Notes: a model not told the origin generated them from the letters alone. 64,000 nt of DNA from Bradymonadia bacterium (GCA_046290225.1 JBKAGE010000044.1:34431-98430); one strand, 5' to 3'. Counted from the stretch's first letter, positions 5,309 to 8,146 are shown. Numbers and translations are program-made.

Positions 5309-6459
5309 CACTGCCCTTCTCCTCTCTGGAGCGTCTCCGTCGCCCGACTCCACACCCGAGCCATTTGACGCTGCGCTGCGCGGCGAGCAGGACCCTCGAT
5401 GGCCCGCGCCAGAACTTCCAGAGCTTCCCCTGGTGGACGCGTCCTGAGCCGTGACGCCAGGGCGCCATGGACCACGAGGCGATCTGCTCGCATGGTTGCT
5501 TCATCGGCACCGGCGTCGCCCCATTCAAGTGGAATTGCTTCGAGAATCGCCGCGAGGGCCGGCGCCATGAGCTGTGGCGCCCTGGGCGGAAGGGCCCGAA
5601 CGAGGGCATTCCGGAAGCTCGCAGGCAACGGCTGACCGACGATGGGACCCTCAACTTCGGGCAAAGAGTGAGGCCCGTCGACGAGGGTGCCCACACCATC
5701 GAGGGTGGCCACGGTGGCCCAGTGCTCACCAGCAAGAAAAACCTCGGCGCTGAAGCCTTCTTCGGTGCGCACCAGCCTCCGGGTGCGACCTCGGGTGCTG
5801 AACATCTGGCCGTTGACGTAGACCGCTTCGACCTCGTCCCGCCGCTGCACGCACACCTGTGGGTGGGTCCACGACCACATGAACGGTCGCGGGTGCCAGT
5901 CCACGGCAGGGGTCTTGTTGGCCGTGGTCAGCGCGCTTTCTTCCACCCCCTCTGTAAACCGCGCGCAGGTGGCCACGAGATCGATGGCGTCCTCCTCACC
6001 CAGCGCGAAAGACGTGTGCAGCGCATCGAACAAGGCCTCTGTCGGATAGGGCCCGGTGTAGCGCAGAGACGACAACCCCGCGATCTGGGCCGTGATGGAG
6101 ACAGCATTGAGGATGGCAGCCCCACCCCCTTGAGGCAGCCGCCCGGGCTCGGCGAGAGGGGGGATGCACTTGGGGCGCGACCACTTCACCTGCCGAAATG
6201 GGGTGATGGGCCGCTCGATGGCTTCGTTGCTCATGGCCTCGGCCTGATCGTCGAAGGGGCCACAGACGAGATCGCACCGCCCGAGCACAGGATGTTGCGC
6301 CTGGGCGGTGAGCACGGTGATCCACTGCCCTCCGGGCAACTTGAGCGCCATCCGGCTCAACGTCTCCGAGCCCCACTGAGCGATGATGTAGGGGGTGTCG
6401 CCGCCCACGCTGAGCACACGGCCTTCTTCGGCGTGGATGTCGAGTTCGGACGAATGCAT
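5308..6459 (-). CDS. Hypothetical protein (383 aa)
   Basis: Long ORF with strong RBS (CAGGAGG) before ATG 6459; coupled to the DUF429 gene. Confidence 0.75.
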   Translation of the reverse strand: MHSSELDIHAEEGRVLSVGGDTPYIIAQWGSETLSRMALKLPGGQWITVLTAQAQHPVLGRCDLVCGPFDDQAEAMSNEAIERPITPFRQVKWSRPKCIPPLAEPGRLPQGGGAAILNAVSITAQIAGLSSLRYTGPYPTEALFDALHTSFALGEEDAIDLVATCARFTEGVEESALTTANKTPAVDWHPRPFMWSWTHPQVCVQRRDEVEAVYVNGQMFSTRGRTRRLVRTEEGFSAEVFLAGEHWATVATLDGVGTLVDGPHSLPEVEGPIVGQPLPASFRNALVRALPPRAPQLMAPALAAILEAIPLEWGDAGADEATMRADRLVVHGALASRLRTRPPGEALEVLARAIEGPARRAAQRQMARVWSRATETLQRGEGQ

Positions 6460-6523
6460 GTTACCTCCTGGCCGCCGATCAAAGATGCCCGGGCGATATG
6501 GTGGTTGTGGGGGTGCACGCTGA

Positions 6524-6557
6524 CCCACGGGGTCCCACGGTGTATCACACCCCACGG
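6524..6557. promoter_or_regulatory. Direct repeats (CCCACGG x3), candidate enhancer-binding-protein site
   Basis: CCCACGG at 6524, 6534 and 6551, about 125-155 bp upstream of a sigma54 -24 box. Confidence 0.5.
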
Positions 6558-6637
6558 CAGAGGCTGACGCGCTAAATTGCGCACCCAGCTATCCAGATGG
6601 CGCCACAGCATGACATTCGATACAGAACAACACGACG

Positions 6638-6650
6638 TAAACCACTGAAA
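6638..6650. promoter_or_regulatory. Possible IHF site
   Basis: TAAACCACTGAAA versus YAANNNNTTGATW (2 mismatches), between the repeats and the sigma54 promoter. Confidence 0.4.
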
Positions 6651-6679
6651 TCACCTCCCGACAGCCATCCCCGGCTTTT

Positions 6680-6696
6680 CTGGCACGCCCTCTGCT
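6680..6696 (+). promoter_or_regulatory. Sigma54 (-24/-12) promoter of the tRNA operon
   Basis: CTGGCACGCCCTCTGCT matches YTGGCACG-N4-TTGCW with correct GG/GC spacing. Confidence 0.8.
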
Positions 6697-6794
6697 CTAG
6701 TGCTGGGCGCCGCATCGAAGCGGACCGGGGGCGCCACTCTCGCCCCGCTTCGAGAAGGCCTGAGCAGCTGCTTTCATGCACGTATTGCTCATGT

Positions 6795-6866
<72 letters not shown>

Positions 6867-6876
6867 CAGTGGATTT

Positions 6877-6990
6877 GGGCGGGGCCTCGCGGGGGCGGGG
6901 TTTCGGGGTGCGGGCACGCCAGAGGTGGTGATTCTCATGTCACCGCCTCTGACGTGAGGTCCTCTGATGGCTTGACCATCAGGCGACCTT
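6877..6990 (+). ncRNA. Structured inter-tRNA spacer (six G-tracts plus two hairpins)
   Basis: G3-G5 tracts at 6877-6914; 12-bp stem 6920-6931/6940-6951; interrupted stem 6957-6989. Confidence 0.4.
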
Positions 6991-6993
6991 GTT

Positions 6994-7068
6994 TCCAGGG
7001 TAGCTCAGGGGTAGAGCATCCGGTTGTGATCCGGTGAGTCACGGGTTCGAATCCCGTCCTTGGAACCA
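6994..7068 (+). tRNA. tRNA-His(GTG), atypical (T at -1, U1:A72, A73, CCA encoded)
   Basis: Acceptor TCCAGGG/CCTTGGA, anticodon arm TCCGG-TTGTGAT-CCGGT, T-arm ACGGG-TTCGAAT-CCCGT, then A-CCA. Confidence 0.9.
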
Positions 7069-7073
7069 TGTAG

Positions 7074-7100
7074 AGCCCAGGTCGTCGACCTGGGCTTTTT
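7074..7100 (+). terminator. Intrinsic terminator closing the tRNA operon
   Basis: AGCCCAGGTC-GTC-GACCTGGGCT followed by TTTT. Confidence 0.85.
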
Positions 7101-7234
7101 CATTCCGTGCGCCACTGAGTTTGGCGCGATCACTCAAGTCGAGCCTGATCACGGCCCCTACCTTTCGAGTGTGCGCTGCGGATGATGCACATCCGCAGCC
7201 TGGCGTCTTCTCACGCGTACACTCGGAGGTCTCC

Positions 7235-8146
7235 ATGCGCCCGACCAGACTGACTCCAAAACTCCTTGTCTCTACCACTTCATGGGTGGTCCTTCTGGTG
7301 TGCCTGCTCTGGGCAGGCTCCGGCTGCGCACCCAACGCGGCGTATCGTGTCGATGTGCCTCAGAGCGATCAGGCCAAGGTGCGGAGGCGGCCCGCTGGCG
7401 AAGTCCTGATGGTCTTGTCGGCGGCCCCGATACAGACGCTCGCTGACGGCACCACGAGAGAAACCGGATACTTCCTCAACGAGTTCTACGAGCCATATCA
7501 GGCCCTCGTCGGCGCCGGTTACAGCATCACCATCGCCACGCTTGACGGCCAACCCCCGAGCCTCGATCCCGAGAGCCTCCAGGAAAAGTACTGGAATGAA
7601 GGCCCTGAGACGCTGGCCCAGGCCCGGGCCCTCGTCGAGACTCTGCCTCAGATGAGATCTCCCGTGCCCCTCGCAGAGGCAGCTCGTCGGGCAGATGCCT
7701 TCCAGGCCCTCGTCGTCCCCGGAGGTCAGGGGGTCATGGTCGATCTGCTCGACGCGCCGACGCTGCATGCCCTCATTCGAGACTTCGCCGCCACGGATCG
7801 ACCCATCGGCCTCATCTGCCATGCGCCAGCGATCTTGAGCCGGGTGAACAACCTCCCTGCTTCGTTTACCAACCGACACGTCACCTCGGTCTCGGGCATC
7901 GAGGAATGGTACATCGAGTCGTTCGTCATGGACGCCGAGGCCCAGGTGCGAGGCATCGGCGATCGACTGGAGACTGCAGGCTTTCGCCACGAGAGCGGCT
8001 TCCCGGGCAAGTCGCACGCAGTGCGGGACTGCAACCTCGTCACCGATCAAAACCCCTTCTCTGGTGAAGCGTTCAATACACTGTTCCTCGATGCACTTCG
8101 GGATTGGCGACGGGGCGGACGCTGTGTGCCCAACGTGGATGGCTAG
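7235..8146 (+). CDS. DJ-1/PfpI (type 1 glutamine amidotransferase-like) protein with lipoprotein-type signal
   Basis: ETGYFLNE, VPGGQG, ICHAP, DQNPFS motifs; RBS GGAGG before ATG 7235; AGSGC lipobox-like. Confidence 0.88.
   Translation: MRPTRLTPKLLVSTTSWVVLLVCLLWAGSGCAPNAAYRVDVPQSDQAKVRRRPAGEVLMVLSAAPIQTLADGTTRETGYFLNEFYEPYQALVGAGYSITIATLDGQPPSLDPESLQEKYWNEGPETLAQARALVETLPQMRSPVPLAEAARRADAFQALVVPGGQGVMVDLLDAPTLHALIRDFAATDRPIGLICHAPAILSRVNNLPASFTNRHVTSVSGIEEWYIESFVMDAEAQVRGIGDRLETAGFRHESGFPGKSHAVRDCNLVTDQNPFSGEAFNTLFLDALRDWRRGGRCVPNVDG

Follow-up and report, generated by a model that had tools for sequence, protein, structure and literature searches.

The G-1:C73 pair is among the most nearly universal of tRNA identity marks, and the escapes from it that we know of couple an altered tRNA to an altered HisRS. 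A tRNA-His(GUG) gene in a 64,000-nucleotide stretch of DNA from a Bradymonadia bacterium (GCA_046290225.1, JBKAGE010000044.1:34431-98430; the whole stretch analyzed is called the window below) is distinguished by the loss of both G-1 and C73 while the cell keeps a C73 tRNA-His and a single HisRS. How such a tRNA could be made, matured, and charged is the question that this locus raises. Judged from its sequence, it is probably a histidine-accepting tRNA used in translation. The fuller account favored here, in which it would be a conditionally made reserve tRNA-His charged by the single HisRS without the G-1:C73 mark, is more tentative and falls somewhat short of probable.

The gene and its upstream base are as follows:

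6994-7068, plus strand: tRNA-His(GUG), called by ARAGORN, with U1:A72, A73, an encoded CCA, and U27:U43
6993, plus strand: T at position -1 of the tRNA-His, read directly and able to pair with A73

The first-pass annotation had described a tRNA-His(GUG) with neither G-1 nor C73, and all of the features that it named are present. On the 5' side, T occupies both -1 (6993) and -2 (6992); on the 3' side, position 73 is A (7065), followed by the encoded CCA (7066-7068). The acceptor strands, UCCAGGG and CCUUGGA, give U1:A72, C2:G71, C3:G70, and a G5:U68 wobble, and the earlier description of this end as Asn-like is a fair one, as the housekeeping tRNA-Asn starts with UCC and finishes with GGA. The gene scores 63.1 bits over 6994-7065 against the Rfam tRNA gathering score of 29 and fits the 7/5 Rfam model end to end without gaps, with a T stem of five pairs (ACGGG/CCCGU) and a D-loop of 7 nt (AGGGGUA). 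G15:C48, the T-loop, CCA, and the full set of tertiary-pair positions are present, and in the Rfam alignment U27:U43, the first pair of the anticodon stem, is the sole nonstandard pair marked. Folding with U-1 included gives, at minimum energy, a cloverleaf whose acceptor stem has 8 pairs. Of the canonical bacterial tRNA-His set, the gene has GUG and a standard cloverleaf but not the encoded G-1, C73, or G1:C72.

The window's genome (G000; 8.58 Mb in 83 contigs, 64% G+C, rated 99.4% complete) has 96 tRNA genes in the ARAGORN calls, including two for tRNA-His and two for tRNA-Asn. The housekeeping tRNA-His, at C35:228775-228851, lies in a Pro-Arg-His-Arg-Lys-Lys-Leu cluster that is also found in relatives. 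It has G1:C72, C73, and CCA, with C rather than G at -1, so that the prospect raised in the first-pass annotation, namely that the housekeeping tRNA-His of the lineage has the same ends, can be set aside. The window tRNA-His is a second copy beside this housekeeping gene, with which it shares the anticodon loop UUGUGAU. The housekeeping gene is also its nearest paralog within the genome, with 54 of 72 positions alike; as no paralog is nearer than this, the window gene is no recent duplicate or anticodon switch of a resident tRNA, and an origin of this kind, including one from tRNA-Asn or tRNA-Gln, was rejected.

The second tRNA-His is preceded by a second copy of another tRNA:

6795-6867, plus strand: spare tRNA-Asn(GUU), called by ARAGORN (Rfam, 69.6 bits), with G1:C72, G73, and a U6:U67 mismatch

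Its housekeeping counterpart on C39 combines U1:A72 with G73. Elsewhere, a G1:C72 tRNA-Asn also sits before the spare tRNA-His of genome G227 (L154). The Asn-His block resembles the other spare tRNA blocks of the genome in that second copies are clustered beside housekeeping genes. Because the spare tRNAs mostly keep the discriminator of their housekeeping counterparts, with exceptions seen for His, Gln, Ile, and one Arg, they look, as a set, built for charging.

Several other properties of the spare tRNAs were observed along the way. Spare blocks sorted by amino acid lie at C42:92366-93501, C20:227-1226, C37:77269-79067, and C79:72099-73132. Both spare tRNA-Gln genes (C42:92366-92441 and 92651-92723) have U73 in place of G73, and a spare tRNA-Ile (C20:559-633) has U1:A72 and U73. 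An 86-nt tRNA-Thr(UGU) with a long extra arm is situated within the Leu/Ser/Tyr spare block (G000:C37:77832-77917), and a CUA-anticodon tRNA labeled "Pyl" by ARAGORN (C14:27995-28067), which also occurs in genome G256 (L034), may be of the amber-suppressor type.

The surroundings of the Asn-His block bear on when it might be expressed. The protein genes nearby (cyclase, kinase, DUF429, DJ-1/PfpI, and AraC) are of an ordinary chromosomal kind, and a search of 24 relatives at E <= 1e-30 gave no match to the DJ-1/PfpI-like protein downstream (7235-8146). Around and between the two tRNAs lie the following elements:

6610-6648, plus strand: candidate leader ORF, weak, of 12 codons and a stop, encoding MTFDTEQHDVNH
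6681-6696, plus strand: sigma54-type promoter-like site (TGGCAC-N5-CTGCT), with the tRNA-Asn about 100 nt downstream
6715-6753, plus strand: long hairpin that would lie in the operon's 5' leader; no U-tract follows
6868-6993, plus strand: structured spacer of 126 nt with three hairpins, between tRNA-Asn and tRNA-His
7072-7100, plus strand: intrinsic terminator, a 12-pair GC-rich hairpin and then a U run, directly 3' of the tRNA-His

The sigma54 pattern, TGGCACNNNNNYTGCW, has a single match on the two strands of the 64-kb window, and at least one match is found in 28 of 100 shuffles. A relaxed form of the motif has 63 matches genome-wide, of which only 6681-6696 falls within 400 nt upstream of a same-strand tRNA. 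The site combines -24 GG and -12 GC at the consensus spacing in a genome that encodes rpoN (222 bits), as expected of a sigma54 promoter, and it is a single motif match. A scan of 6300-7300 for sigma70-type promoters returned 0 sites.

The leader ORF offers a competing view of regulation, as it lies upstream of the sigma54-like site. It has 2 His codons and 1 Asn codon (3/11), and its last two sense codons are Asn-His; when 6568-6794 is dinucleotide-shuffled, 55 of 2000 shuffles have a short ORF with a His+Asn fraction as high. No clear Shine-Dalgarno sequence was found for this ORF, and no terminator-like site upstream of 6795, so that none lies between the ORF and the tRNA-Asn. Three other spare blocks of the genome have longer upstream ORFs that match the amino acids of the block (10, 29, and 15 of 1000 shuffles, respectively); in contrast to these leader-matched blocks, the Asn-His block has a shorter, weak leader with the sigma54-like site downstream of it. 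The leader reading is weak here, and the sigma54 reading is ranked above it because the ORF is short, lies upstream of the sigma54-like site, and is not followed by a terminator.

The fold of 6705-6760, which includes the leader hairpin, has an energy of -30.5 kcal/mol (z = -2.16), and that of the spacer, a sequence unique within the genome, an energy of -69.2 kcal/mol (z = -4.15, with 0 of 200 shuffles as stable). The last spacer hairpin is followed by UUGUUU ending at the -1 base, with 6970-6984 flagged as terminator-like; together these could act in processing or as an attenuator inside the unit. At the 3' end, 7066-7106 folds with -21.8 kcal/mol (z = -5.8), although a simple terminator scan did not list 7072-7100.

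Which synthetase might use the tRNA is constrained by the enzymes encoded in the genome. Among 13 candidates scored, only one matches the HisRS family over the cut-off (162 bits), and the second hisS contemplated in the first-pass annotation was not found. Compared with solved chains, this HisRS (436 aa, on C35) scores 290 bits with 6nhi, 275 with 3net, 258 with human cytoplasmic HisRS, 143 with 1kmm, and 114 with 4rdx, the last two being the E. coli and Thermus thermophilus enzymes; the nearest of these chains are of Bacteroidota, cyanobacterial, and eukaryote type. The other gene contemplated at that stage, one for a Thg1-like protein, is present once (Thg1 family, 106 bits). It is an ORF of 278 aa on C54, and its best solved chain is bacterial, 4kgk, a "Thg1-like uncharacterized protein" (149 bits).

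AsnRS (634 bits) and GlnRS (735 bits) are both encoded as well, and no GatB candidate was found in this 99.4% complete genome. A role for GatCAB, to which the Asn-like end had pointed the first reading, loses its footing on these grounds: with both synthetases present and no GatB, feeding through U1:A72 does not apply. Nor is U1:A72 specifically Asn-like: a genome of the same phylum, G256, has a housekeeping tRNA-His in which it is combined with G-1 and C73, and 23 distinct phage tRNA-His show the same combination. That GlnRS or AsnRS mischarges the tRNA, so that Gln or Asn is placed at His codons, is very improbable. The GlnRS identity set overlaps U1:A72, U35, and G36, but G34, A73, and C2:G71/C3:G70 lie outside it; AsnRS, to which the acceptor end might appeal, needs U36 and G73, which G36 and A73 do not match. 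Both enzymes are available, but no GatB accompanies them, and a missense insertion at each His codon would come at a high cost.

Another issue for understanding this tRNA is how much weight its -1 and 73 positions can bear. T is at -1 in 51 of the 96 tRNA genes of the window's genome and is the commonest base there, and T-1 with A73 is, at 23/96, the most frequent combination of the two positions. The U-1:A73 pairing proposed in the first-pass annotation does form in the predicted fold, but as the default combination of the genome it says little by itself: the T-1/A73 tRNAs of this genome must be cut at +1, and U-1:A73 is thus no evidence of a retained -1 base. Position 73 pairs with the RNA of bacterial RNase P, which favors U at -1, in keeping with cutting at +1.

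Relatives of the gene are few. No ortholog was found in 40 relatives, where BLAST matches to the core, at no more than 80% identity, are to other tRNAs, or in a further 27 genomes of the family. In 400 other genomes of the phylum, with 2 candidates scored per genome, a full-length U1:A72 tRNA-His was found only in G046, and the pattern of the body from anticodon to T-arm is shared by 3 of 401 phylum genomes (G000, G046, and G227). In each of these, the body belongs to a second tRNA-His within a small block, Asn-His, Arg-Asp-His, and Pro-Asn-His, respectively, and in G046 and G227 the canonical tRNA-His that accompanies it has G at -1. In an alignment, U1 and the T-arm are common to the three genes, which are distinct from the housekeeping copies. 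Their ends vary: the G227 copy has G-1:C73 with U1 opposite C72, and the G046 copy has C-1, U1:A72, and U73. No Thg1-family match was found in G227 or in G046, the latter 100% complete. On this shared pattern, the three make up a small family of second tRNA-His genes with a patchy distribution. The Arg-Asp-His block of G046 comes after a short ORF with His, Arg, and Asp codons and a terminator, which fits use in His decoding, and the codon match of the leader is not significant in either related block (218 of 2000 shuffles in G046, 615 of 2000 in G227).

Wider scans provide little more. In a scan of 185,579 species, with one genome per species and with the window genome's own records perhaps left out, the pattern GUG, A72, non-C73, and CCA has 9 loci, of which only that of G046 is like the window gene. 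A pattern scan of JGI metagenome contigs gave 3 loci, all G1:C72 with C73; blastn of phage records gave matches at 76-85% identity in the core, none of them a close relative; and a scan of viral sequences for the shared T-arm gave 8 loci, 7 of them called as tRNA-His and all 7 with C73. Viral contigs (IMG/VR) scanned with a pattern requiring A72 and CCA yielded 78 loci with 48 distinct tRNA-His sequences, among which 23 are G-1/U1:A72/C73, 11 are T-1/U1:A72/C73, and 9 are G-1/U1:A72/A73. Those with U1:A72 and C73 but without G at -1 make up 12 of the 48 (11 T, 1 C). None of the 48 is a clean case of T-1, U1:A72, and A73; one locus (L070) is ambiguous.

Two kinds of unusual tRNA-His in bacterial assemblies also came to light. 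An Aquificaceae MAG contig (WFPN01000216.1, L144) has a GUG tRNA on an Asn-type acceptor (UCCGGGG.../...CCCCGGA) with G73 and A-1. Polyangiaceae/Byssovorax MAG contigs (L139, L141, and L145) have dense tRNA arrays in which the tRNA-His is G-1, U1:A72, and A73, the same type as the 9 distinct phage sequences.

Such a sparse distribution might suggest a decaying, functionless remnant of a horizontally acquired tRNA block. The lack of an ortholog in relatives, the -1/73 combination that is different in each of the three family members, and the U27:U43 mismatch are all consistent with decay. Against it stands the record of change in contigs from three metagenomic DNA runs, which were aligned on 6560-7110. 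One contig is identical over 6979-7110. Another, covering 6961-7101, differs away from its ends only at 7070 and 7071 and by a gap at 7074, with 6991-7069 identical. A diverged contig, X3 (6922-7069), has 14 differences, of which the 10 listed all fall in 6952-6989, with 0 at 6990-7039; the other 4 are within 30 nt of the contig ends, and the comparison covers positions up to 7039. The contrast between 10 changes in 38 spacer bases and 0 in 50 (-4 to -1 and tRNA positions 1-46) has a Fisher p = 1e-4 in this one contig, which argues for purifying selection on the tRNA-His as far as a single contig can. The absence of conservation that the first-pass annotation had named as fatal to its reading is not what is seen, as the tRNA-His is kept in diverged metagenome contigs. 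Decay is quite improbable given the 0 listed changes in tRNA positions 1-46 against 10 in the 38 nt upstream, the high Rfam score, and the intact terminator and CCA.

A conserved tRNA-like RNA need not serve translation. The transcript could be an uncharged or poorly charged, signal-induced RNA that has a regulatory role or serves tRNA-cutting enzymes as a decoy. In favor of this, both main HisRS determinants are absent, and the anticodon loop is identical to the housekeeping one, a match that a decoy would require. Such a role is nevertheless improbable: CCA, the full set of tertiary-pair positions, and a partner tRNA-Asn with GUU and G73 point to normal tRNA use, as does the His-containing leader ORF at the G046 block.

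The account preferred here, a reserve tRNA-His charged by the resident HisRS, draws together the intact cloverleaf, the block's own terminator, the conservation of the gene, and the presence of one HisRS and one Thg1-like gene; counting against it are the heavy price of G-1 loss in the HisRS of E. coli and yeast, the G046 homolog with neither a -1:73 pair nor an adding enzyme, the lack of an ortholog in relatives, the weak leader, and a sigma54-like site that is one motif match. The sigma54-like site at 6681-6696 would drive transcription, so that the RNA would be made only on a signal. RNase P would cleave normally at +1, leaving no -1 base, as suggested by T-1/A73 being the default arrangement of the genome. 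The prediction is that the Thg1-like enzyme then adds a U templated by A73, by which the 5'-phosphate would be restored at -1. The housekeeping tRNA-His, with C-1 and C73, probably already needs the same enzyme for its G-1. Aided by the GUG anticodon, HisRS would then histidylate the spare tRNA, probably less efficiently than the housekeeping tRNA.

The biochemistry of related enzymes provides some guide to the plausibility of these steps. The -1 residue serves chiefly to position the 5'-phosphate in HisRS (PMC3245924, PMC9976931). Opposite A73, a bacterial Thg1-like protein favors U over G about 40-fold, and it adds U-1 there with a kcat/KM of about 230 M-1 s-1, compared with 5500 M-1 s-1 for G-1 opposite C73, so that the U-1 addition is about 24-fold less efficient in vitro (PMC3061083). 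That the window tRNA is a histidine acceptor with an added -1 base is on this footing possible, if doubtful.

Alternatively, the same reserve tRNA-His may stay bare at its 5' end after the +1 cut, with HisRS charging it weakly through its anticodon and overall shape and with high induced expression compensating. A histidine-accepting tRNA with a bare 5' end is unlikely, and so is this route as a whole. In its favor, the G046 homolog, with C-1/U73 and no Thg1-like match, indicates that the family can persist without a -1:73 pair or an adding enzyme, and T-1/A73 is the default of normally processed tRNAs in the window's genome. Yeast, moreover, lives on G-1-less tRNA-His when the tRNA and HisRS are overexpressed (PMC3064791), and the C. 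elegans HisRS copes with tRNA-His lacking G-1 (PMC9976931). It is opposed by the presence of a Thg1-like gene in the window's genome, by the ability of Thg1-like enzymes to add U opposite A73 in vitro (PMC3061083), and by the more than 100-fold cost of a missing -1 residue in the G-1-type enzymes tested, those of E. coli and yeast, for which C73 is also a determinant (PMC3064791).

A link between encoded G-1 and the Thg1-like gene is also apparent from comparison across the family of the window's genome. Thg1-like status could be paired with the -1 base of the housekeeping tRNA-His in 21 genomes, with no tRNA-His recovered for G002, G010, G012, G017, G024, G410, and G411. Four of the five Thg1-like-positive genomes have no G-1 (C in G000 and G019, T in G004 and G009), the fifth, G006, having G, whereas all 16 Thg1-like-negative genomes have G at -1. 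The association has a Fisher p = 8e-4 (4/5 vs 0/16) among kin that are not independent. Outside the family, the other 14 Thg1-like-positive genomes of the phylum sample all keep G at -1. In the family, encoded G-1 is thus lost only where the Thg1-like gene is present, and presence does not force the loss. According to a statement from 2010, all bacteria except 20 alphaproteobacteria encode G-1 (PMC3061083), and the portions of the literature covered contain no report of further bacteria of this kind.

Other tRNA-His arrangements in the sample are worth recording. Thg1-like-positive genome G216 has, on C27 (L203), a second tRNA-His with T-1 and C73 in an Asp-Glu-Glu-His block. In G013 (C1:281970-283439) and G021 (C15), the only tRNA-His detected has G-1, G1:C72, and A73 and lies directly upstream of hisS, an arrangement suggestive of a linked tRNA/synthetase pair whose discriminator is eukaryote-like. 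An argument for A73 tolerance from these two genomes was considered and dropped; their hisS product is only 41% identical to the HisRS of the window's genome and adjoins its tRNA, and it is uninformative on this HisRS.

Several systems already described come close to the window tRNA-His. The tRNA-His of Caulobacter crescentus-type alphaproteobacteria is likewise a bacterial GUG tRNA with A73 and no G-1, but it has G1:U72 and a 9-nt D-loop with U20a in place of U1:A72 and a 7-nt D-loop; no other tRNA-His accompanies it in the cell, and the HisRS that reads it is divergent and carries inserts (PMC3064791), whereas the window tRNA-His coexists with one of canonical body under one HisRS. In proteobacterial tRNA-His, G1:C72 is conserved (PMC3064791). 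The tRNA-His of phage T5, which the first-pass annotation had cited for its U-1, indeed begins with T before G1:C72 and C73 in the GenBank annotation (AY543070). Like the window gene, it has T-1 and is an extra tRNA beside the host's own, annotated as functional over a span that includes the T-1 base; unlike the window tRNA-His, in which A72 is joined by an A73 that can pair with U-1, it has G1:C72 and C73, leaving U-1 unpaired. The (8/4) tRNA-His of phages and one alphaproteobacterium also lack G-1, have A73 or U73, and occur in clustered irregular sets, but they have an 8-pair acceptor and a 4-pair T stem (PMC5389517), whereas the window tRNA-His fits 7/5. The U1:A72 phage tRNA-His from IMG/VR share U1:A72 and the encoded CCA, yet those with A73 keep G-1 and those with T-1 keep C73, while the window gene has lost both. 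Eukaryotic cytoplasmic tRNA-His resembles it in A73, in the absence of an encoded G-1, and in an encoded 3'-5' adding enzyme; eukaryotic Thg1, however, adds an untemplated G opposite A73 (PMC3245924), whereas bacterial Thg1-like proteins favor templated addition, which here would give U.

By the features compared, the window tRNA-His falls outside the canonical G-1:C73, the alphaproteobacterial G-1-less, the (8/4), and the T5-type sets. Analogy suggests that it would work most like a phage- or array-borne auxiliary tRNA-His.

What the locus may mean for this organism follows from the pairing of two tRNA-His species in one cell. A tRNA-His without the mark, alongside one of canonical body and a single HisRS, would allow the tolerance of a natural HisRS for a missing mark to be tested directly. 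The same genome would allow a test of whether a bacterial Thg1-like enzyme has a genuine part in tRNA-His maturation, a part that has been called unknown or redundant (PMC3245924, 2012; PMC6471195, 2019). The pair could also supply naturally orthogonal or inducible tRNA-His parts. The boldest form of the account, in which two His identity sets would be served by one HisRS and the Thg1-like enzyme would add both G-1 opposite C73 and U-1 opposite A73, is distinctly unlikely. Installation of the identity base on both tRNA-His species by the Thg1-like enzyme would raise the interest of the system; if true, this would be the first bacterium to need a Thg1-like enzyme for tRNA-His identity, and its spare tRNA would be the first natural U-1:A73 tRNA-His.
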